From a bacterium (lineage in GTDB: Bacteria; Desulfobacterota; S145-22): a stretch of 64,000 nt of DNA. Shown here one piece after another: positions 2,893 to 52,457 of the stretch. A program made the position numbers and the translations under genes. Below the pieces are notes generated by a model. It made no database searches. It saw nothing but the letters and a program-made list of their open reading frames with translations, and was not told the DNA's origin. Within the stretch, counting starts at the first letter, position 1. Every line of letters begins with the position of its first letter. The stretch is taken from the NCBI GenBank assembly GCA_026986155.1, contig JALSPC010000165.1, positions 7,870 to 71,869 on the forward strand, written 5' to 3'.

Positions 2893-3572
2893 AAGGAACG
2901 GCACGCTACTTTTTATCCAGCGTTTTCCGGATTTGATTGCGAGGTCTCTCGCGTGAAAGACTTTTAAAAATCATATTGCCTCCTTCACGTTATTCACTGT
3001 CACCATTCCCAAGTTTCTCAAGAACCCCAGGGGGCACCACAAAGACATCTTTCTCGGTCTTGACCAGAACCCACAACCCGCGGGATCGGAACCATCAAAT
3101 GTGCAAGGTGGGCAGGAGAAGATACCGCTTCTGTTCCAAGGAGAAGAAGATCCACTTAACCGTGCTCCGCGCGGAGAAGAAGATCAAGATCTTTCGCGAG
3201 AAGTATCAATGGCGATTGGGGATTAAGGCGACATAGTCCGCCCTGAATCGGCTTAAAGGATCCAGGCGGTTGCGATCCAGAGGGATAGACGCGCGAAGAT
3301 GAGTGTCCTGCTTAGACTTCTTGGGTTAAAGCTGTGTAGCGGAAATTCTGCCTTGATAACCACAATGAGAGGTCAAACAGGCCGACAGAAGTCGTATTTT
3401 GGATTTTTATGGTATTTTTCAAGGCGTTTATGGTCGAAATCTGGGGCATGATGAACGAATCAAGGCTGTCCAAAACAGCTTTTCCACGGATTCAGCGTCC
3501 CAGGCTGCAAATGACAATTTGAACCCTTTTGGGGTCTCCCAAACCATCATGCTTGTCCTGTTGACGAAGGAA

Positions 3573-3601
3573 TTGACACCTCTTTTTGGATAGGTTAGAA
3601 A
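3573..3601 (+). promoter_or_regulatory. Candidate sigma70-like promoter of the low-GC cassette (TTGACA-N17-TAGAAA)
   Basis: TTGACA at 3573-3578, a 17-nt spacer, then TAGAAA at 3596-3601. GGAGG RBS at 3611-3615 and ATG at 3624. Confidence 0.3.
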
Positions 3602-3623
3602 TCATATTCTGGAGGCAACGATC

Positions 3624-4253
3624 ATGGCGAAATGGAAAATGAATTGCCCTTTTTCTGGAAAGGGTTGCAAGGAATGCTCAATATATCGGGGGAGACACTA
3701 TTTTCTTTGTTTTTCTAAGAGGTATAGAGGTGTCATTGGAGACCGGGTGGATAATTTCGAGGAGGTCTTGAAGAACACCTCCTTTTTCCCTTCGTCGAGA
3801 GACGAAAAAAGAGAGCCGAAAGTTTCCATGGAGAAGTGGGATAAATCCGTTTTCGGCACGGAGACGGTTTTAATTGTGGAAGACGACGATTTCTGGCAGG
3901 ATTTCCTGCGTTGGGCTCTTGACGACACGGGATACAATATTATCATTGCCAGTGGCAAGGAGGCTATTGATATCTTCGATAAGCGTTGCGATGAAATAGA
4001 CCTTGTCATCGCGGATGCGGCATCGTCGGGAAGAGGAATAATCCGTTACGCGAAGGAAAAGAAACCTTCCGTAAAGGCCATACTGACGACTGGAAACTAT
4101 TCCGCGGTTTCAGATTTTCACGATGAAAATCGGGTGGCCGCGGTTTTGCAAAAACCCTACAGCTCTTACACGCTGGTAAGGACGGTGCGAGATGTCTTGG
4201 ACGGGAAAGTTTTTTCTCGACAGGATCTTGAAACAGCAGCGGCAGTTTCGTAA
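3624..4253 (+). CDS. Orphan response-regulator receiver (REC) domain protein with an N-terminal four-cysteine motif and no output domain
   Basis: GGAGG 8 nt upstream of ATG 3624. N-terminus carries four cysteines spaced C-x6-C-x2-C-x10-C (CPFSGKGC KEC ... FLCF). Canonical receiver signatures: acidic EDDD, phospho-acceptor Asp in DLVIAD, conserved T in ILTTG, conserved K in LQKPY. Low GC compared with the flanks. Confidence 0.7.
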   Translation: MAKWKMNCPFSGKGCKECSIYRGRHYFLCFSKRYRGVIGDRVDNFEEVLKNTSFFPSSRDEKREPKVSMEKWDKSVFGTETVLIVEDDDFWQDFLRWALDDTGYNIIIASGKEAIDIFDKRCDEIDLVIADAASSGRGIIRYAKEKKPSVKAILTTGNYSAVSDFHDENRVAAVLQKPYSSYTLVRTVRDVLDGKVFSRQDLETAAAVS

Positions 4254-4293
4254 GAATCAAGACGGGGAAAACAACAAAAAAGGAGGAGATACC

Positions 4294-4569
4294 ATGCCTG
4301 ACGTTGAAAAAGCCAAATCTCTCATCCCGTATTTCGAGGAACAGTTGCCGGGGTACACCATTGAGTTCAAGTATGTCACCCACATGCGCTTTGAATACCG
4401 GTTTATCCAGAAGGGCAAGATTCAATACCGCGTGGCCTTGTCCATCGATCTGGTGGACAAACATTCTAAGGAAGAGATCATTGCCCATTTGGAAAAGAAA
4501 AACTGGAAGGCGGAACTGGAGAAGCTGGATCCCATAACCAACACGACAGCCTATTTTGGAGAGGATTAA
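4294..4569 (+). CDS. Hypothetical small protein (91 aa), second gene of the low-GC cassette
   Basis: AGGAGG at 4281-4286, 7 nt before ATG 4294. Lies 40 nt after gene 1. No family recognised by eye. Confidence 0.55.
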   Translation: MPDVEKAKSLIPYFEEQLPGYTIEFKYVTHMRFEYRFIQKGKIQYRVALSIDLVDKHSKEEIIAHLEKKNWKAELEKLDPITNTTAYFGED

Positions 4570-4583
4570 CCTCCTTTTCCATC

Positions 4584-4955
4584 ATGGTATTCAGGACACT
4601 GGACGATGTCAGAAAGGTGTGGGACCAGATACAATGGGATCTCACGCCCCAAAAGGTGACGCTCCGATTGAGGAAGGCCTTTGCGGAGCCCGATAAAAAT
4701 CAGGCATTGATTGCGTCCATGCGGGGGTACTATTTTTGTATCAACGTATGGGGATGCAAGGCTTATCTGGCCCTGGTGGATCATGTGGAGAATTTCGGGG
4801 AACCGTATATCCTGGAAGACGCTGGAATTCCAGAGGAAATTTTGGAGAAGGCCGTTTTCGAACAGGGGGGATCCATGCTGATAGCCGGCCTATATGCCAT
4901 TGACGACGCCATAAAAAAAATGATTATGGAAAGGATCGGGGGTGAACGGAAATGA
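4584..4955 (+). CDS. Hypothetical protein (123 aa), third gene of the low-GC cassette
   Basis: ATG 14 nt after the gene 2 stop. Ends 22 nt before a strong intrinsic terminator. No family recognised. Confidence 0.55.
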   Translation: MVFRTLDDVRKVWDQIQWDLTPQKVTLRLRKAFAEPDKNQALIASMRGYYFCINVWGCKAYLALVDHVENFGEPYILEDAGIPEEILEKAVFEQGGSMLIAGLYAIDDAIKKMIMERIGGERK

Positions 4956-4976
4956 AGAAATTCATGGGACACGACG

Positions 4977-5002
4977 GGAGGCCATGCGGCCTCCCTTTTT
5001 TG
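4977..5002 (+). terminator. Rho-independent terminator
   Basis: Perfect 8-bp GC-rich stem GGGAGGCC / GGCCTCCC with loop ATGC, followed by TTTTTT (4997-5002). Confidence 0.7.
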
Positions 5003-5938: not shown

Positions 5939-7036
5939 ATGACACCCGCGGAAAAAATCCTTGCGGCACGCATTGCGCGCGAGGGCCCGATTCCCTTCCG
6001 GGACTTCATGGAAACCGCCCTCTATCACCCGGAGACGGGCTATTACACGGCCCAGGCGGGGCAGATAGGGGAGGCGGGCGATTACTACACGGCAAGTTCT
6101 CTGGGATCCCTGTTCGGAAGGATGCTGGCGCGTCAGTTCCAGGAGATGCTCTCCGGCATGGACGCGACCATGATTGTCGAGGCCGGGGCGGGTAAGGGCA
6201 TCCTGGCGCGCGATATCCTCGAGGCCTGGTCGGGGGGCAGGGATGAGGCGCGGTATGTCATCGTCGAAAGGAGCCCCGCGTTGCGGGCGGTCCAGGAAGA
6301 GGTCCTGGGCGGAAGGAAGGTGTCATGGGTTGAGACCGTGAACGACCTTCCAGAAATCGAGGGCGTCATCTTTTCCAACGAACTTTTCGACGCCTTCCCC
6401 GTTCACGTGGTGGAGATGACGGAGGACGGCCTGAAAGAGGTTTTCGTGGATTGGCGCGAGGGGTTCGAAGAGGTGCTGATGCCCCCGTCAACCCCTTTGC
6501 TCGCCGATTATTTCGAGACCCTCGGGGTTTTACTTCCGGCCGGCTTTCGCGCGGAGGTGAACCTGGAGGCCCGCGCGTGGCTGAAGGCGGCCGCTTCGAA
6601 ACTGGCGCGGGGGTATCTGGTCACCATCGATTACGGCTATCCCACGCGTGAACTCTACCAGGATTACCGGCGGCGCGGCACCCTCATGGCCTACGAGCGG
6701 CACCAGGCGCTGGAGGACCTTTACGAGAACGTGGGGCGCAGGGACCTGACGGCCCACGTCAATTTCTCCGCGCTGGCCACATGGGGGAAGGCGTTCGGAC
6801 TGAACGTGACGGGGTTCACTGACCAGGCCCATTTCCTGATGAGTCTGGGGATTCTGGATGTCTTGTCGGACGCCGGCACGCCGGAAGAGGTCAAGGCCCG
6901 CCTCAACGCCAAGTCCCTCCTCTTGCCGGGGGGGATGGGCGAGATCTTCAAGGTCCTCATCCAGCACAAGGGGCTCACGCCGCCGCCTCTTTCGGGATTG
7001 AGCCACTTGCCGAGACGGGCGAGCTGCCGGTTGTAA
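5939..7036 (+). CDS. Class I SAM-dependent methyltransferase, MidA / NDUFAF7-like (DUF185)
   Basis: 365 aa. Glycine-rich SAM-binding motif VEAGAGKGILARD and overall MidA-like layout. Starts 8 nt after the ddaH-like gene. Confidence 0.75.
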   Translation: MTPAEKILAARIAREGPIPFRDFMETALYHPETGYYTAQAGQIGEAGDYYTASSLGSLFGRMLARQFQEMLSGMDATMIVEAGAGKGILARDILEAWSGGRDEARYVIVERSPALRAVQEEVLGGRKVSWVETVNDLPEIEGVIFSNELFDAFPVHVVEMTEDGLKEVFVDWREGFEEVLMPPSTPLLADYFETLGVLLPAGFRAEVNLEARAWLKAAASKLARGYLVTIDYGYPTRELYQDYRRRGTLMAYERHQALEDLYENVGRRDLTAHVNFSALATWGKAFGLNVTGFTDQAHFLMSLGILDVLSDAGTPEEVKARLNAKSLLLPGGMGEIFKVLIQHKGLTPPPLSGLSHLPRRASCRL

Positions 7037-7054
7037 TAATTTTTGGAGATTAAG

Positions 7055-8544
7055 ATGTCGAAAAAAAAGAAGATTGGGCGGAATGACCCGTGTCCCTGCG
7101 GGAGCGGGAAGAAGTACAAAAACTGCTGTCTGAAAAAGGAGATCCAAACGGTGGATCTTTTTTGGCGGAGGACACGGGAAGCCCTGCAAGCCTCCTCGGA
7201 CGCGCTGCTGAATTTTGCTGAAAAAAGAGTGGGTGATTGGGGCCTGTCTGTTGCCGCGGGCGAGTTTTTTTTTTGTGGCCTGATGATCCTTTGGTTTTGA
7301 CTGATTTATTGAGAGGACACTTCGATATTTTTGCTCCGTGGTTTATCTACAATTGGGTCTACGACCCCGAGGAATTGGAAGATGAGGGCATAGAGTTGCC
7401 TATTCCTCCCAATATGACGCTTTCGCAGATCTTTCTGGAGAAGAGAGGGAAAAACCTGGACAGCCTTCAACGCCGCGTGCTGGAGGCGAATATAAGACGG
7501 CCCTACACCTTTTACGAAGTAAAAAGCTGCCGTCCGGGTGAGGGGGTTCAACTCGAAGATCTCATCCTTGGTGATGTCATCGATGTGTTTGAAGAGAAGG
7601 GATCGGAAAACTTGAATCCGGGAGATATCCTTTTCGCGCGAACCGTCACGATCGATCATGTCACCATGCTCGACGGGTGTGGCAAACATAAAATTCCGAG
7701 CGATTTCAAGGAAAACATCCTTGAGTTCAGGGATAGGATATTACAAGCTTACGATACGCTGACGTGGGAGGTTCTCGAGGAATATGACATGGAGATACGG
7801 GATTTTTATTTCTATGTCTGCGATGATTTTCTGGAGCCGCTTGTTTCCCAGAATACGGATGGCGATCCGCTTCTCTTCCATACCCTTTATTACGAAATTG
7901 ATGACCCGGGGGAGGCGTTTGAAAAATTGCGCCCGCTCGCCAAGGGCATCAGTAAGCAAAAGCTGCTGGACGAGGCCCTTTACGACAGAAACGGCAATCT
8001 GGTCGAGATTGAATTTCCTTGGCTGCGGAAGGGATTTAAGGGGAACGCGTTGTTTGACGATACCGTTCTTGGGAATATCTATATTAAGAAAGATATCTTA
8101 ATCATTGATGTGAATTCAGCTAAGCGGGCGGAGAAGATAAAAAATGAGATCACAAAACGTCTGAAGGGACATGCCAGGTTGCGTGACACGGATATCCAGA
8201 CCCTTGAAGAGGTCCGAGGCGGGGAGGAAGATGACTGGGATGAGGACTTGGAAGACGAGCTTGATGACGAAGCTTTGCTGAAGAGACCGGAAATCCAGGA
8301 AGGCCTCGTGAAAATACTCAACGGTAAATGGGAAGAATGGCTTGACGAGGAAGTCCCGTTCTTCGGCGGGAAAATACCCCGCGAAATGGTCAAGACAAAG
8401 GAGGGCCGCGATCGGGTGCGGGATTTCTTGAAGTTTATGGAAATGGAGGTGCGTAAAGATGAAGTGATGGGCGCCGCCCATCTGCGCGGTATCCAGAAAG
8501 TGAGAAAGGCCCTGGGGCTTCCCGTTGATGGCGAGGAGGAATAA
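7055..8544 (+). pseudogene. SEC-C metal-binding motif protein interrupted by a frameshift at a T10 homopolymer (85-aa and 435-aa ORFs)
   Basis: N-terminal SEC-C motif [15 protein letters not shown] from ATG 7055. The reading frame changes at T10 (7265-7274). Adding one T fuses the upstream frame to the downstream ORF (…[19 protein letters not shown]…). The C-terminal part is acidic (EEDDWDEDLEDELDDE). Low GC. Confidence 0.5.
7265..7274 (+). repeat. Poly-T (T10) homopolymer tract at the frameshift site
   Basis: Ten consecutive T's counted directly in the sequence. Confidence 0.9.
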
Positions 8545-8767
8545 GAGCTTAAAAGGTCCAAGCCTCGCCATTTCAAGGGCATTAAGCATTATTTACGGCT
8601 TCATAAAAAGTCCAATGCCCGCACCTGCCAGCGCGTGACCGCGCGCAGACAGGTCGCGTTGCGTCCCTCATATTGCGACTGGCTTCAAATGCGTTTCAGC
8701 CCTAACAAATCGCGCTTCTTGAACTACTTTGCCTTATAAAAATATAGGTTTGGCGAGATTATCAGAT

Positions 8768-8796
8768 TTGACATAACGGGAAAGGCGTGCTATTGA
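8768..8796 (+). promoter_or_regulatory. Candidate promoter of the marR-RND efflux operon (TTGACA-N17-TATTGA)
   Basis: TTGACA at 8768-8773, a 17-nt spacer, then TATTGA at 8791-8796. GAGG RBS at 8832-8835 and ATG at 8841. Confidence 0.4.
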
Positions 8797-8798
8797 TA

Positions 8799-8819
8799 GG
8801 CTCCTAATAATTAGGAGCC
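8799..8819 (+). promoter_or_regulatory. Perfect 10-bp inverted repeat GGCTCCTAAT-A-ATTAGGAGCC, putative MarR autoregulatory operator
   Basis: Perfect palindrome immediately downstream of the -10 element and 22 nt upstream of the marR start codon. Confidence 0.5.
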
Positions 8820-8840
8820 AAAATATCGTGTGAGGTAAAA

Positions 8841-9380
8841 ATGTTGGAAAAAATCAATGAAAAACTTCTCGCGAATTTGAAGCGGGAATTTCCCACGAGT
8901 GATACGGAGTTTCTTGTGACGTTCATTCGCGTGATTCACTTCCAACACGCGGTTCCCAGCCTTTTCGACCAGTATTTCTCACGGATGGGGCTGTCCAAGG
9001 CCCGGTTCATGGTTTTGATTCAGCTGTTTCTCCGCGGGGGCGAGGAAGGGCTGGGGATCTCGGAAATTAACCGCTTCTACGGCGTCAGCGCCGCCACGAT
9101 GACGGGGGTGGTGGATACCCTGGAACGGGAAGGGTATGTAAAACGCTCCCACAGCGCGAAGGACCGGCGTCGCGTCATCCTCAGGCTTACGAAGCACGGC
9201 GAGTTGTTTATGCGACGGTTCATCCCCGTTCACGCCTTGAACCTGAAGAATATGATGCGGTCTTTCTCGCGCGAGGACCTGACGAACCTGATGAATCTGA
9301 ACGCGCGGCTCGTGGAGAGTATCGAGTCGTTTTTGTCATCGGATCGGCTGAAAATTCCCGGGGAGGGGGTTGGGAAATGA
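8841..9380 (+). CDS. MarR family transcriptional regulator
   Basis: 179 aa. Winged-helix region EINRFYGVSAATMTGVVDTLEREGYVKRSHSAKDRRRVILRLT is typical of MarR. Its stop overlaps the start of the downstream efflux outer membrane factor gene. Confidence 0.85.
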   Translation: MLEKINEKLLANLKREFPTSDTEFLVTFIRVIHFQHAVPSLFDQYFSRMGLSKARFMVLIQLFLRGGEEGLGISEINRFYGVSAATMTGVVDTLEREGYVKRSHSAKDRRRVILRLTKHGELFMRRFIPVHALNLKNMMRSFSREDLTNLMNLNARLVESIESFLSSDRLKIPGEGVGK

Positions 9381-10852
9381 AATCGGTTAGTAGCGTGAGA
9401 ACAGGAATTCTTGAGAGGGCCTTGGCGTGGGCCGGCGCTGTGACGGCGTTTGCCCTGTTTTTGCCGTGGTTTTATGGGTGTTCGCTGGCCCCGCCGATGA
9501 AGAAGGTCGAGATTCCCGGCGCTGCACGGACGTCGTTTTCGGGGGACAAAACGGGGCGACCCTTCTCGGATTCCGCGTGGTGGACGCTTTTCGGGGACAC
9601 AAGACTGACCGATCTCATAGCCTACGCCCTGAAACAGTCCCCGGACGCGCGGCACGCCCTCCTCAACGTGGAGGCCTTTCGCCAGCAGATGATCATCGCG
9701 AGGGCCCCCCTCCTGCCGGGGGTTGATTTCAACGGAGACATCGGACGGAGCCGCCAGCCGGTCTATGACCGGAAGGGTAACCGAAAGGGCGAAGAGGTCA
9801 ACAATTTTGGCTTGCTTTTGACGGCCTCCTATGAGGTGGATCTTTGGAAGAGAATCGCCAACTCGGCGGAGATGGCCCGTCTCGCGCTTTTGTCCTCAAG
9901 GGAAAACCTGAACACGGTTTACCAGACCCTGACGGCGAATGTTTCCCGCCTCTACTTCGAGATTTCGGAACTGGAGGCGGAGCTTCCCCTTTGGGGGCAG
10001 CTATTGAAGATAACGAAGCTCCAGGCGGATGACGCGAAGCGCGGCTATTTCAACGGCATCATGGACGGAAACACCTATCTTACCATCCAGCAGCGGGAGG
10101 AGAAGGCGCGCCAAGACCTCTTCGCGAACCGAAGAAAACTTTCTGTCTCGCGGTTTGGGCTGAACACGCTCATGGGGAAGGAACCGGCCGCCCGCCTTGT
10201 CGTTTCCCCGTTTGACATCTTCGAGAAGGGGCTTGCCCCGGTTCCCGCGGGTTTGCCTTCGAAGCTGCTGGAGAGGCGGCCAGACGTTCGTATTGCCGAG
10301 CTTCGTGTCCGCCAGGCCCTGTTGAACATCGGGGTCAAGAAGGCGGCCCTGCTTCCCGCCTTGAGGCTCACCGCCAACGGGGGCTACCGGAGTCCCGAAC
10401 TCTCGGACTTGACCGGCGGGAGCTCCAAGGTCTGGGCGCTCCTGGGCGGGTTGACCCAACCGATTTTTCACCGGGGCGCCAAGAAGGCGGCGGTAAAAAA
10501 GGCGGAAATCGAGGCGCAGATGGCCGTGGAGGCGTATCGCAAGGTGGCCCTGAACGCCTTCAGGGAGGTGGAATCCGCCCTGACTGTCTACGAGGAGTTG
10601 GTCCTGCAGTTGGAGCAGGAAAAGAAGGCGTATAGAAACGAGGCTATCGTCTACCGCAGGGTTCACAACGGCTACCTCTCCGGGACGCGTTCGTTCCAGG
10701 GCTTTTTGTCCGCCAAGATTTCCCTCTTGAGCCGTCGAATCGTCGTCTTTCGCCTCTATCTCCGCCTGCTTCAGAATCGTGTCCAGCTCTACACGGCCCT
10801 GGGGGGCGGGATCGCGAAATTCAAAGAGATTGCGGGAGGTGGTCATGAATAG
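9377..10852 (+). CDS. RND efflux outer membrane factor lipoprotein (NodT / TolC family)
   Basis: 491 aa. Signal peptide with lipobox FYGC. Two outer membrane factor-type repeats. ATGA overlap with marR. Confidence 0.88.
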   Translation: MKSVSSVRTGILERALAWAGAVTAFALFLPWFYGCSLAPPMKKVEIPGAARTSFSGDKTGRPFSDSAWWTLFGDTRLTDLIAYALKQSPDARHALLNVEAFRQQMIIARAPLLPGVDFNGDIGRSRQPVYDRKGNRKGEEVNNFGLLLTASYEVDLWKRIANSAEMARLALLSSRENLNTVYQTLTANVSRLYFEISELEAELPLWGQLLKITKLQADDAKRGYFNGIMDGNTYLTIQQREEKARQDLFANRRKLSVSRFGLNTLMGKEPAARLVVSPFDIFEKGLAPVPAGLPSKLLERRPDVRIAELRVRQALLNIGVKKAALLPALRLTANGGYRSPELSDLTGGSSKVWALLGGLTQPIFHRGAKKAAVKKAEIEAQMAVEAYRKVALNAFREVESALTVYEELVLQLEQEKKAYRNEAIVYRRVHNGYLSGTRSFQGFLSAKISLLSRRIVVFRLYLRLLQNRVQLYTALGGGIAKFKEIAGGGHE

Positions 10853-11972
10853 ATTCATGAAGGTTTTCCTGCCGGTTGTCATTATCGTCACGGCCGTCTT
10901 TTCCGTTTACCTGTTCATCAAGTTCAAGAAGGTCCCGCCGAAAAAGGCGGCGCGCGCGAGGGGGCCCCTGGTAACCGTCGAGGTGGCGCGCAGGGTGAAA
11001 AACCCCATTGTCATTGTTGGATACGGAACGGTAAGACCGGTACACACGCTCAACCTGGTTCCGCAGGTTTCGGGAAAGGTCGTGGCTGTGTCGAAAAACT
11101 TCATCGAGGGCGGCTTCGTAAAACGCGGTGAGGTTCTCGTCCAGCTCGAAAAGACCGACTACGCGATCGCCCTGAAGCGGGCCGAGGCAAATCTCTTGAA
11201 CAGGGACGTGGCATATAAAAAGGCCTTGAAACAGGCCCATATCGCGAAAAAAGAATGGGAAGAGATCCTAAAAAACGTCCTTATGGATAAGAAGGTGGTT
11301 CCGGACGCCCTGACCTTCTATCTCCCACAGCTCAAGGCGGCCAAGGCGGCTTACGACGCGGCGGCGGCGGACCTCCGCCTCGCGAAGTTGAACCTGGAAA
11401 GGACAACATTACGTTCGCCCTACGACGCGCGGGTCTTGAAACGTCTCACCGACCTGGGGCAATTCGTCACACCGGGCAAGGTCATCGGACACCTTTTCAG
11501 CACGGGGGTGGCGGAGATCGAGGTCCCCCTCAGGTCCCGGGATGCGGCATGGCTCACGGTGCCCTCCACGGCGGAGGTGATATCGACCCTCACGGGAAAA
11601 AAGGTCCGGTACCCCGCGATGCTTGTCCGCACGGCGGGCGCTGTCGACCCGGGCTCACGGATGCTCCACGCCATTCTGCGGGTGAAGGCCCCTTACCGGT
11701 TCACTCCCCCCTTGGAAAACGGGGATTTTGTCACGGTCCGAATCCGGGGAAAGACGGGGGAAGGTTTCTGGATCTCCGCCAAGGCGGAGCGCGACGGCAA
11801 GGTCTGGATCGCCCGGGAGGGGAAACTCGTGATCCGAACCGTCAGAGTCCTCTACCGTGAGAAGGAGAAGGTCTTCGTTTCCGGTCTCCGTGAGGGAGAC
11901 CCGGTCATCACCACCTCCCTGTTTGCCGTGACGAACGGGATGCAAATCCGGGTGAGAAAGAGCGCGAAATGA
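10845..11972 (+). CDS. RND efflux membrane fusion (periplasmic adaptor) protein
   Basis: ATG at 10845 overlaps the outer membrane factor stop. N-terminal TM anchor, then a biotinyl-lipoyl-like and beta-barrel adaptor layout. Confidence 0.88.
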   Translation: MNRFMKVFLPVVIIVTAVFSVYLFIKFKKVPPKKAARARGPLVTVEVARRVKNPIVIVGYGTVRPVHTLNLVPQVSGKVVAVSKNFIEGGFVKRGEVLVQLEKTDYAIALKRAEANLLNRDVAYKKALKQAHIAKKEWEEILKNVLMDKKVVPDALTFYLPQLKAAKAAYDAAAADLRLAKLNLERTTLRSPYDARVLKRLTDLGQFVTPGKVIGHLFSTGVAEIEVPLRSRDAAWLTVPSTAEVISTLTGKKVRYPAMLVRTAGAVDPGSRMLHAILRVKAPYRFTPPLENGDFVTVRIRGKTGEGFWISAKAERDGKVWIAREGKLVIRTVRVLYREKEKVFVSGLREGDPVITTSLFAVTNGMQIRVRKSAK

Positions 11973-14900
11973 AACGGGCGATACGATGGATGGTGGAAAA
12001 CCCCGTTTCCGCTAATCTCCTGCTGGTCTTCATTATCGGGTTTGGGATCCTGCAGGCCCTTTCCATCAAGAAAGAGGTTTTTCCCGAGTATTCCCTCGAT
12101 ATGATCTCGGTCACGGTTCCTTATCGCGGTGCCACGCCGACGGACGTGGAGGAAGCCGTCTGTACGCGCATCGAGGAAGAGATCAGCGGCCTGGACGGCA
12201 TCAAGCGAATTACCTCCACGGCACGGGAAGGGCTCGGAACCGTCCTCGTGGAGGTTCAGAAAGGATACGACGCCAAGAAGCTGCGGGACGACGTCAAGAG
12301 CGCCGTGGACCGTATCACGAACTTTCCGAAGGATATCGATCAGCCCGTCGTGACCGAGGTGTCCCGGAAACGGGAGGTCTTGAAGGTGGTTCTCTACGGC
12401 GGCGTGGACGAGAAAGACCTGAAACGTTCGGGGGAACGGCTGCGGGACGATCTATCGTCTTTGAAGGGAATTTCTCTCGTCACCCTCGACGCGGTTCGCC
12501 CCTATGAGGTTTCCATCGAGGTGCCGGAGACAATGCTCGAGAAGTACAACCTTACCATCCCGCGCGTGGCTGCCATCGTGGCCGCCAATTGCCGGGACAT
12601 TCCGGCGGGGAAAATCCGTCAAAAGGGGGAAGAGATCCTGGTCAGGACAAAGGGGCTCAAGTATACCCGAAAGGATTTCATGGGCATCCCCGTCATCCGG
12701 GATCCGGCGGGGGGATATGTGCGCCTGTCGGATATCGCGAATATCGTGGATGGTTTCGAGGAGACCGACGCCGCCACCTATTTTGACGGCCAGCGCGCTG
12801 TCCTGCTGAAGGTTTATCGCATTGGGGAACAGTCGGCCCTGGATATCGAAAGGGCCGTCAAACGCCAATTGCCGCGTTTGACACAGACCCTGCCTGACGG
12901 GATTCACTGGGTGATTACGAACAACAGGGCCCGGATCCTGCGGGACAGGCTTGACCTCCTCGTCCGGAACGGCAAGTACGGGCTCATCCTCGTGGTTCTG
13001 CTCCTCGCCATGTTCCTGGAGCTTCGCCTGGCGCTCTGGGTGGCCATGGGTATCCCCGTGGCCTTCTTTGGATCCTTTATCCTCCTGCCATATTTCGGGG
13101 TCTCGGTCAACATGATTTCCCTTTTTGCCTTCATTATCTGCCTGGGAATCGTGGTGGATGACGCCATTATCATCGGGGAACATATCTTTACCAAGATTCA
13201 GGATGGCGTTCCTCGTAAAGAGGCCGCGGTGGAGGGGGCCTACGAGATGGCGGCGCCCGTCATCCTGACGGTCCTGACTACCATCGCCGCGTTTCTGCCC
13301 CTGCTGTTCGTGTCGGGGATCATGGGGAAATTCATGTTCGCCATTCCGGTAGTGGTCATCTCGGTCCTCTCCATCTCCCTGGTGGAGGCGATATTTATCC
13401 TTCCATCCCACTTGGCTCATCTCAAGGAACGGAAAGACAGCCACATCGTCCGGTTCCTGCCGAAATACTTCGATAGCTGGCTCGAGGCCTTCATCGAAAA
13501 GGTTTATCAACCCGTGCTGAAACTTGCCCTCTCTTGGCGGGTGACCGCGCTGGCGCTGGGCATCCTGATGCTTTGCCTGATGGTGGGATACGTAGCCTCG
13601 GGCCGGATAAAGATTGTCTTTTTCCCCAAGGTGGACGCGGATTTCGTCATCGCCGAGGTGAAGCTTCCAGAGGGGGCCAGCGCGGACCAGACTCTCCACG
13701 CGGTCCGGCGCCTCGCGAAGAGCGCGGACGCGGTCCAGGCCTACTACGAAAAGCGTTACGGTAAATCGATCGTGAAGCATCTCGTGCTGACAGTGGCGTC
13801 CCAGCCTTACGGTTCCCGTCACGAGGTTACCCGAAACGCCGCGCCGAACATCGGGGAGGCGGCCATCGAGCTGGTGGCGGCGAATGACCGGAAGGGCATC
13901 AACAGCAACGAGGTGGCGAACGTGTGGCGGCGGCTGACGGGGGAGGTCCCCGGCGCGGAGAGCGTGACTTACAACGCCAATCTCTTCTCCGGGGGCGCAG
14001 CCATCGATATCCAGCTTTCCTCCGACGACTTCGAACAGTTGAAACAGGCATCCGCGCGTCTGAAGCGGGAACTTGCCAGGTTCAACGGCGTCAAGGATAT
14101 TCACGACAACATCGAAGGGGGAAAACAGGAGATCAACCTGAAACTGACCGACCGGGGAAAGGCCTTGGGCCTGAACCTGATCGATCTGGGGTTGCAGGTC
14201 CGCGGAGCCTTCTACGGAACGGAGGCCGTTCGAATCCAGCGGGGGAAGGACGATGTCCGTATCATGGTTCGGTATCCCACAAACGGAAGGATCTCCCTCC
14301 TGGACCTTGAAAAGATGGAGATTGAAACCGCCAAGGGCGCGCGGATCCCCCTCCCTGAAGCGGCCACCTGGACTATCCGCCCGGGATATTCGGTGATAAC
14401 CCGTTCGAACCGGCGCCGAGTCGTCGATGTCAAGGCGGACGTGGTAAGAAGCATCTCCAACGCGGATGAAATCATCAAGGAACTCCAGGGGAGTTTTCTG
14501 GAGCGCCTCAAGGCTGATTACCCCGGATTGAACTACTCTCTTGAGGGTGAGGAGAAGGAAAGGCGGGATTCCATGCGGAGCATGATGTACGGCTTCATCG
14601 TGGCCTTGTTTCTCATTTTTGTTCTCCTGGCGATTCCCTTCAACTCCTACATTCAGCCTCTCGTCATCATGACGGCTATTCCCTTCGGGATCATCGGGGC
14701 CGTCCTGGGCCATCTCCTCCTGGGATTTAATCTCAGCATCGTGAGTTTTTTCGGTATCGTCGCCCTGGCGGGGGTTTTGGTCAACGATTCCCTCGTTTTG
14801 CTCGATGCCATCAACAAGCGGATGGCATCTGGGGCCCCCAACAAGATAGAGGCCGTGATTGAGGCGTCGAAATCACGTTTCCGGCCCGTCATCCTGACCT

Positions 14901-15079
14901 CCGTGACCACCTTTGGCGGCCTGCTCCCCATGATTACCGAGACCTCCGTGCAGGCGCGCGTCTTGATCCCCATGGCTATTTCCCTGGGGTTTGGCGTCCT
15001 TTTCGCCACGGGTATCACGTTGATTTTGATTCCCGCCCTCTATATGATGATTTCAAAGGACGAACAGGATGCGAGATAA
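11969..15079 (+). CDS. RND multidrug efflux transporter (AcrB/HAE1 family)
   Basis: 1036 aa with 12-TM RND architecture and two large periplasmic loops. ATGA overlap with the membrane fusion protein gene. Confidence 0.93.
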   Translation: MKRAIRWMVENPVSANLLLVFIIGFGILQALSIKKEVFPEYSLDMISVTVPYRGATPTDVEEAVCTRIEEEISGLDGIKRITSTAREGLGTVLVEVQKGYDAKKLRDDVKSAVDRITNFPKDIDQPVVTEVSRKREVLKVVLYGGVDEKDLKRSGERLRDDLSSLKGISLVTLDAVRPYEVSIEVPETMLEKYNLTIPRVAAIVAANCRDIPAGKIRQKGEEILVRTKGLKYTRKDFMGIPVIRDPAGGYVRLSDIANIVDGFEETDAATYFDGQRAVLLKVYRIGEQSALDIERAVKRQLPRLTQTLPDGIHWVITNNRARILRDRLDLLVRNGKYGLILVVLLLAMFLELRLALWVAMGIPVAFFGSFILLPYFGVSVNMISLFAFIICLGIVVDDAIIIGEHIFTKIQDGVPRKEAAVEGAYEMAAPVILTVLTTIAAFLPLLFVSGIMGKFMFAIPVVVISVLSISLVEAIFILPSHLAHLKERKDSHIVRFLPKYFDSWLEAFIEKVYQPVLKLALSWRVTALALGILMLCLMVGYVASGRIKIVFFPKVDADFVIAEVKLPEGASADQTLHAVRRLAKSADAVQAYYEKRYGKSIVKHLVLTVASQPYGSRHEVTRNAAPNIGEAAIELVAANDRKGINSNEVANVWRRLTGEVPGAESVTYNANLFSGGAAIDIQLSSDDFEQLKQASARLKRELARFNGVKDIHDNIEGGKQEINLKLTDRGKALGLNLIDLGLQVRGAFYGTEAVRIQRGKDDVRIMVRYPTNGRISLLDLEKMEIETAKGARIPLPEAATWTIRPGYSVITRSNRRRVVDVKADVVRSISNADEIIKELQGSFLERLKADYPGLNYSLEGEEKERRDSMRSMMYGFIVALFLIFVLLAIPFNSYIQPLVIMTAIPFGIIGAVLGHLLLGFNLSIVSFFGIVALAGVLVNDSLVLLDAINKRMASGAPNKIEAVIEASKSRFRPVILTSVTTFGGLLPMITETSVQARVLIPMAISLGFGVLFATGITLILIPALYMMISKDEQDAR

Positions 15080-47713: not shown

Positions 47714-52335
<4,622 letters not shown>

Positions 52336-52436: not shown

Positions 52437-52457
52437 TTTTTGCCAAAAAAAAATGGT

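Follow-up and report, generated by a model that had tools for sequence, protein, structure and literature searches.

Results and Discussion

A SEC-C/DUF7986 gene broken at a run of ten T's

In the 64-kb window (the whole stretch of DNA analyzed here), gene callers divide the segment 7055-8544 into two genes, coding for a protein of 81 amino acids (aa) with a SEC-C zinc-binding motif and a protein of 415 aa. Judged by homology, the segment is one gene of a widespread and uncharacterized SEC-C + DUF7986 (PF25948) family, and the single gene, not two, is ancestral. Its frame is broken at a homopolymer of ten T's (T10), and the break is probably real and recent, an indel caused by slippage in an accessory gene of horizontal origin. 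The elements of the interrupted gene are as follows.

7045-7048, plus strand: GGAG, a Shine-Dalgarno-like (SD) element read from the sequence, 6 nucleotides (nt) 5' of the ATG at 7055
7055-7300, plus strand: upstream reading frame of 81 codons and a TGA stop (7298-7300), to which the N-termini of 27 and 83 homologues align
7265-7274, plus strand: T10 homopolymer and site of the frame break, inside the conserved E-F-[FL]-L-W-P motif at the C-terminal end of helix α1
7273-8544, plus strand: downstream reading frame, -1 relative to the first, coding for family residues 73-495 and ending at a TAA stop (8542-8544)

The upstream frame codes for family residues 1-72 (zinc knuckle and helix α1), followed by nine out-of-frame residues, FCGLMILWF. 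The second frame is open over 7237-8544 (435 aa), just as the original prediction stated; gene callers let it begin at a TTG (7297) overlapping the upstream TGA and thereby arrive at 415 aa. The same prediction gave 85 aa for the first open reading frame (ORF), which is correct when counted from an upstream TTG at 7043 and becomes 81 aa from the ATG at 7055, and it placed the second ORF in the +1 frame, which is actually -1 (equivalently +2) relative to the first. The frame is restored either by adding one T, which gives a continuous protein of 496 aa, or by removing two, which gives 495 aa; T8 and T11 are in frame and T10 is out of frame. The central claim that T10 at 7265-7274 splits one protein of about 500 residues was thereby confirmed.

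T10 is the sole homopolymer of at least 10 nt in the window. Its presence somewhere in 64 kb is not very improbable by chance, with 0.15 expected and at least one found in 11 of 100 shuffles. That it coincides exactly with the point where the frame of a protein having more than 900 full-length homologues is broken is far beyond chance.

Homology across the break

A search with the joined protein returned 918 homologues, with a match to P0002 at E = 2e-142 over 98% coverage. Almost all of the best 120 are single chains, 480-500 aa long, with an N-terminal SEC-C motif and an alignment that spans 98% of the query; longer members (630-720 aa) carry an additional DUF6398 module. A second search, made with only the part 3' of the tract and reading all 1.84 billion cluster representatives, matched 2,593 clusters at 50% identity with E ≤ 0.001, 417 of them at E ≤ 1e-30. 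These matches begin at residue 70-90 of the homologue in almost every case, and therefore the zinc knuckle and the first helix are normally in the same chain. When the sequence is aligned with 27 and with 83 homologues, similarity runs in the first frame as far as A-A-G-E-F-F and in the second from L-W-P-D-D on. This puts the change of frame within the T run, in the conserved E-F-[FL]-L-W-P motif. This comparison with orthologues, which the original prediction had proposed as a check, finds an intact fused ORF in the homologues and effectively excludes a two-gene arrangement.

A version of the gene with T8 (GAG TTT TTT TTG TGG; E-F-F-L-W-P, 495 aa) aligns to the family without a gap, and the T11 version has one Phe more than any of the 27 aligned homologues. 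The alignment thus favors T8 as the intact state, rather than T11, which had been named as the likely one.

The closest comparison is with the SEC-C + DUF7986 proteins P0002 and P0003 (49% identical) and the Deltaproteobacteria members P0023, P0030 and P0063, which have the same length and are collinear with the joined protein over 98% of it. They share the N-terminal knuckle, the E-F-x-L-W-P, NTDGDP and VNS..RA motifs and the DUF2384-like C-terminal end, and such relatives are usually solo genes in variable surroundings, as is the case here. Unlike them, the window copy is frameshifted in a T10 tract that is absent from all members with readable DNA, and unlike the longer members it is without DUF6398, which those have fused or as a downstream gene. 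The joined protein therefore shows the collinear full-length homology of this family of about 485 aa and departs from it in having no single uninterrupted ORF. A precomputed DUF7986 hit, marked weak, exists on the window's own 415-aa product, and PF25948 is not listed at E ≤ 1 in a local Pfam scan.

The best non-self homologue is 49% identical to the joined protein. No relative was found between 49% and 100% identity, and the protein is the sole member of its 90% cluster. A scan of genome contigs with the family alignment has at least six distant members, 24-30% identical, among the matches listed. A literature search on DUF6398, DUF7986 and their PF numbers returned no papers, and a general SEC-C search returned nothing relevant. 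For annotation, the 81-aa and 415-aa genes should be merged and flagged as one frameshifted SEC-C/DUF7986 gene.

Outside the window, a 414-aa family member on a 2,070-bp JGI contig (P0368) starts exactly at the junction motif, L-L-W-P-E. The contig edge may have truncated it, or the same motif may have been broken independently a second time.

Foreign origin of the gene

EF-G places the window among Thermodesulfobacteriota/Desulfobacterota-like metagenome-assembled genomes, where the relatives are 81-90% identical and named ones about 64-65%. The SEC-C gene lies between genes for a MidA methyltransferase and a MarR/efflux operon, and its base composition is different from that of its surroundings. 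Its G+C content (GC) is 0.49 and that of the following spacer 0.46, compared with 0.59 for the window, in agreement with the low-GC stretch originally noted at about 7040-8840. At third codon positions (GC3) the gene has 0.58-0.64 and the flanking genes 0.73-0.81.

8545-8840, no strand: low-GC (0.46) non-coding spacer from the SEC-C gene to the MarR-family gene

This spacer probably belongs to the islet of foreign composition that contains the gene. A search of it for a DUF6398 remnant was negative, and Rfam and tRNA scans of the window were empty.

Related species (MidA 68-74% and EF-G 81-90% identical) retain the ADI-MidA pair found upstream of the SEC-C gene, and the genes 3' of MidA differ in each of three related genomes. 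No SEC-C homologue is present in the flanks retrieved around ADI-MidA in these species. The foreign composition, the absence of the gene beside ADI-MidA in relatives and the lack of any homologue between 49% and 100% identity point to a lineage-specific, horizontally acquired accessory gene. Acquired accessory genes are the class most often found broken.

The MidA stop codon (7034-7036) and the ATG of the SEC-C gene are 18 nt apart. A pattern scan found no sigma-70-like promoter in 6900-8900, and for this reason the SEC-C gene is likely co-transcribed with the upstream gene.

Origin and age of the break

In the nearest homologues (L081-L086, 46-49% identical) the junction motif is encoded by GAG TTT TTC CTG TGG or GAA TTC CTG TTG TGG, with T5 at most, and in more distant ones by GAA TTT CTG CTT TGG and similar sequences. 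No homopolymer of 8 nt or more occurs in any homologue gene with readable DNA; the longest has 7 nt, and none is at the junction. On this comparison, in which the nearest homologue is 49% identical, the long T tract originated in the lineage of the window and is not a device of the family.

We propose the following course of events. A low-GC islet would have been acquired 3' of the ADI-MidA pair by a Thermodesulfobacteriota-like lineage, in which the conserved E-F-F-L-W-P came to be encoded by the T-rich GAG TTT TTT TTG TGG, i.e. T8. Replication slippage would then have converted T8 to T10 and shifted the remaining 423 codons to the -1 frame. As sequenced, the gene is OFF: standard decoding gives an 81-residue zinc-knuckle peptide and at best an additional C-terminal fragment without the knuckle and helix α1. 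A run of ten T's is expected to be slippery for DNA polymerase, for RNA polymerase and, as U_UUU_UUU, for ribosomes. The break can for this reason probably revert in the DNA, and expression is probably leaky; both properties would be by-products and not an evolved switch. Neither a stop nor another frameshift occurs in the 423 codons after the break, and every family-invariant residue is kept, from which we infer that the break is recent.

The T10 state is recorded repeatedly. Records of its exact products (81 aa and 415 aa) exist in NCBI, JGI, ENA and Logan. The contigs that carry them number at least three and differ in length; among them are a 64,494-bp MEGAHIT contig (k141_547103; ENA ERZ27262668) and a 76,747-bp contig. 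The occurrence on several contigs from different pipelines argues against an assembler artefact and weakens the simple assembly error that had been considered originally. The retrieved stretches, among them the ENA MEGAHIT contig, are identical to the window over 7.5 kb, and L087 and L088 are 100% identical to it. The long housekeeping ORFs of the window are intact (Mfd, 1195 aa; EF-G, 695 aa; KatG, 747 aa; ComEC, 799 aa), which indicates that the assembly is not riddled with indels. This indirect evidence from contigs favors a T10 that is real in the cells.

Several points weigh against a real and recent slippage event. The window protein is off the consensus at 12 of 93 strongly conserved columns, compared with a family mean of 5.5 (6 of 83 members are as bad), a number that is high yet inside the range of the family; the C-terminal part holds all 12 departures. 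They could mean that constraint has been relaxed for longer than 'recent' implies or, equally well, that the protein belongs to a divergent clade. Furthermore, T8 becomes T10 either through a single change of 2 nt or in two steps. From T11 one step would suffice, but the extra Phe of such an ancestor is absent from 27 of 27 aligned homologues. The T10 itself is read from consensus contigs, which may carry a systematic error of the reads or conceal a mixed population, and the T10 assemblies may all stem from one read set and hence are perhaps not independent.

If the slippage account is right, the event is an ordinary one, an acquired accessory gene broken at a self-generated homopolymer. The broken gene would be of interest only if reads or transcripts showed regulated heterogeneity in tract length or slippage.

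Sequencing error, switch or two genes

The explanation that competes best with slippage, although we consider it unlikely, is a sequencing or consensus error. In this case the true tract would be T8 or T11 in an intact gene of 495 or 496 aa, and a homopolymer miscall or stutter in the library PCR would have been carried into all assemblies. Indel errors classically occur in homopolymers, the remainder of the gene is fully intact down to every invariant residue, and the 100% identity of L087 and L088 with the window allows all T10 contigs to come from one sample. No independent strain turned up in metagenome scans: a protein-based scan found no relatives of the window protein, and a search of metagenome contigs for the exact flanks with a variable T run gave 0 matches, with the window itself among the misses. 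On the other side, at least three contigs of different lengths and from different pipelines concur on T10, and the k141 MEGAHIT contig among them indicates short reads. In short-read data, errors at a 10-mer seldom become the majority call, which speaks against a miscall. No other long gene of the window looks frameshifted.

Less probable still, and in our judgment quite unlikely, is that T10 has been kept by selection, either as a contingency tract that toggles the gene ON and OFF or as a programmed transcriptional-slippage or -1 frameshift site that gives both products in a set ratio. In the contingency loci of Neisseria, Haemophilus, Campylobacter and Helicobacter, a run of at least 9 nt near the 5' part of the coding sequence sets the frame, and the frame of the SEC-C gene depends on tract length in the same way. 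Unlike those host-adapted loci, the window has a single such tract in 64 kb, the orthologues have none, and all contigs found carry T10 with identical sequence. The product is predicted to be cytoplasmic and the gene is not a surface or restriction-modification gene, and the host is an environmental Thermodesulfobacteriota-like bacterium. Contingency loci are not typical of free-living, high-GC environmental lineages such as this one, which counts against a switch, and nothing else in the window suggests such loci. Phase variation as an evolved device, one of the readings first offered, finds no support in the homologues with readable DNA, which are without the tract (nearest, T5 at most). T10 is mechanically hypermutable, and reversible switching is possible.

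The same absence bears on programmed recoding. All other family members are plain single ORFs, and the run of at least 9 A or T that programmed transcriptional slippage calls for is present in the window and missing from homologues with readable DNA. For a -1 ribosomal frameshift, U_UUU_UUU at 7267-7273 is in the zero-frame register and a shift would give E-F-F-F-L-W-P; the upstream ORF has a good SD, and the downstream frame is entirely preserved. Site conservation and a stimulator are missing. The sequence 7275-7374 holds no downstream stimulatory structure (folding z = +0.66, with 146 of 200 shuffles folding at least as well), and no SD-like stimulator precedes the run (no GGAG or AGGA in 15 nt). 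Separately, a candidate intragenic terminator or slippage-stimulating hairpin 5' of the run was rejected: with three G-U pairs and a folding energy of about -6 kcal/mol it is weak, and shuffles fold just as well.

RNA polymerase slippage on runs of at least 9 A or T is documented, with examples in the A9 of Thermus thermophilus dnaX and the A/T9 sites of IS elements, and in many bacteria it is efficient from about 9 nt on, a length that T10 exceeds (Baranov et al. 2005, PMC1088944). In Citrobacter rodentium, tssM1 is interrupted, and transcriptional slippage at an A11 run rescues it (Gueguen et al. 2014, PMC4256274). The SEC-C gene resembles these sites in having a long A/T run in a coding sequence, with the distal part in another frame that is reachable by one added transcript nucleotide. 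At the tssM1, dnaX and IS sites slippage was shown experimentally and the site is conserved or required; the window tract, in contrast, is known from sequence and absent in the homologues with readable DNA. Some full-length protein plausibly could be made through slippage on U10. That T10 is kept by selection specifically as a slippage expression device, supplying a free 81-residue knuckle peptide together with full-length OB-fold/DUF2384-like protein at a low and tunable level, seems to us very improbable. If it were true, the protein might belong to an unrecognized single-gene stress or defense module, an idea that arises because homologues are often found among toxin-antitoxin, Abi and restriction-modification genes.

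Two genuine genes, a small zinc-knuckle protein and a 415-aa protein coupled at the overlapping TGA/TTG (7297-7300) and acting as two subunits, would agree with the callers' two genes with a 4-nt overlap and with the occurrence of DUF6398 in the same family both fused and as a separate overlapping gene. This is scarcely credible. The change of frame interrupts a conserved motif midway, and neither the final 9 residues of the upstream ORF nor the initial 12 codons of the downstream one have a counterpart in the family. Moreover, no SD precedes TTG 7297, the 415-aa piece would miss helix 32-71 of a confidently modeled helical domain, and homologues are essentially all single chains.

Two other homopolymers were noted. 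A8 at 7061-7068 (codons 3-5, a Lys run) is the second long homopolymer of the SEC-C gene and makes an in-frame A_AAA_AAG heptamer, a classic dnaX-type slippery motif. It is probably a mere consequence of the Lys-rich N-terminus, because the -1 frame closes after about 6 codons. The second-longest homopolymer of the window, A9 at 52445-52453, is intergenic, 5' of katG (50080-52326, minus strand).

Domains and predicted structure of the joined protein

An AlphaFold2 model of the joined protein, a calculation that the original prediction had suggested, was built on 84 sequences and is confident and multi-domain, with a pLDDT of 89.9 and a pTM of 0.70. Domain matches and the model together give the following features.

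7079-7132, plus strand: SEC-C (SecA-type) metal-binding motif, residues 9-26 (PF02810, E = 1.4e-9, 38.1 bits against a cut-off of 20.4)
7507-7680, plus strand: predicted five-stranded beta-barrel of OB-fold topology (b1-b2-b3-helix-b4-b5), residues 151-208
8203-8286, plus strand: acidic, predicted disordered linker, residues 383-410 (15 Asp and Glu of 28), with pLDDT <50 at residues 390-402
8329-8430, plus strand: C-terminal helical domain with likeness to the Xre/MbcA/ParS toxin-binding domain (DUF2384; PF09722)
Model residues 1-28: zinc knuckle
Model residues 32-145: helical domain, the first helix of which (32-71) ends at the frame break
Model residues 215-258: helices
Model residues 274-381: alpha+beta domain, ferredoxin-like
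Model residues 411-485: helical C-terminal domain

The SEC-C motif in the first ORF was correctly recognized from the start; its N-terminal position, which had been called unusual, is the rule in the family. Cys13, Cys15, Cys24 and Cys25 are invariant across the family in both the 27- and the 83-homologue alignments, and the family profile matches the SecA and YchJ metal-binding-domain structures 1ozb, 1sx0 and 9l6b. The window protein has in common with the C-terminal metal-binding domain of SecA and with YchJ/YecA a Cys-rich knuckle of 18-20 residues. In contrast to these proteins, its knuckle is N-terminal, and its other residues, about 470, share nothing with them.

The region 3' of the junction is acidic (isoelectric point 4.6), as had been noted. 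It had also been described as having no recognizable domain, and this part of the description does not stand in view of the PF09722 match, the DUF7986 hits and the confident multi-domain model. PF09722 passes marginally, with 26.0 bits against a cut-off of 24.5 (E = 9.1e-6); the NCBIfam Xre_ParS_antitoxin model reaches 23.8 bits, under its cut-off of 90, and the family profile matches ParS 6d0h_B weakly (E = 0.013). The likeness to Xre/MbcA/ParS type II antitoxins is limited to the C-terminal residues, about 35-40, just over the PF09722 cut-off. Unlike these antitoxins, the window protein is four times larger and has no N-terminal Xre helix-turn-helix (HTH) domain, and no adjacent RES/ParT toxin gene is present in the window or in the homologue loci inspected. 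With regard to membership among the antitoxins, the DUF2384 domain is thus present marginally, and the Xre HTH and an adjacent RES/ParT/MbcT toxin gene are missing.

Foldseek searches against PDB and BFVD gave no whole-chain match to the model, and in the defense-system and phage libraries (PADLOC, PHROGs) the zinc knuckle alone was matched. From its domain content alone, our best guess is that the joined protein would be a cytoplasmic accessory protein associated with nucleic acids or ribosomes.

Neighborhoods of the gene and of its homologues

Downstream of the spacer, the MarR-family gene (8841-9380) heads an efflux operon with an outer-membrane factor (9377-10852), an adaptor (10779-11972) and an RND pump (11969-15079). 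A perfect palindrome, GCTCCTAAT-A-ATTAGGAGC, at 8800-8818 lies 22 nt 5' of the MarR-family gene and is probably the MarR operator.

The other low-GC stretch, at 3000-5000 (GC 0.48), contains three small genes with little or no family assignment. The product of 3624-4253 has a Cys-rich N-terminus and a weak receiver-domain match, and the other two genes are at 4294-4569 and 4584-4955. They lie just 5' of the conserved ADI-MidA pair, where relatives differ, and the stretch is likely a second acquired islet.

The homologues are solo genes in changing surroundings, and in three of the six distinct neighborhoods inspected they stand with toxin-antitoxin, Abi, restriction-modification or transposase genes. 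In L090 and L091 an intact family member has AbiEi_4 upstream and a caspase-like C14 peptidase downstream, and in L092 another intact member is surrounded by AbiEi/AbiEii, Fic, HigB/HTH and Gp49. Inspection of these loci hints at an association of the family with defense islands. The genes of the closest homologues, L081 and L086, have a lower GC than their surroundings (0.46 compared with 0.55, and 0.48 compared with 0.53), and L084 shows the opposite; the low GC of the former two is consistent with horizontal movement of the family.

The family may be a better target than the broken copy. It comprises about 2,600 clusters at 50% identity and has a confident multi-domain model with no whole-chain structural match; it is without known function and often occurs in neighborhoods rich in defense and toxin-antitoxin genes.

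In L084 and L085 (9518-9871), DUF6398 is a separate 117-aa gene that overlaps the stop of the SEC-C gene by 4 nt, and in the 630-720-aa members it is fused; the two states are a natural fission or fusion of the module. The L084/L085 island also carries ORC/Cdc6-like, PIN, restriction-modification and Y1-transposase genes.

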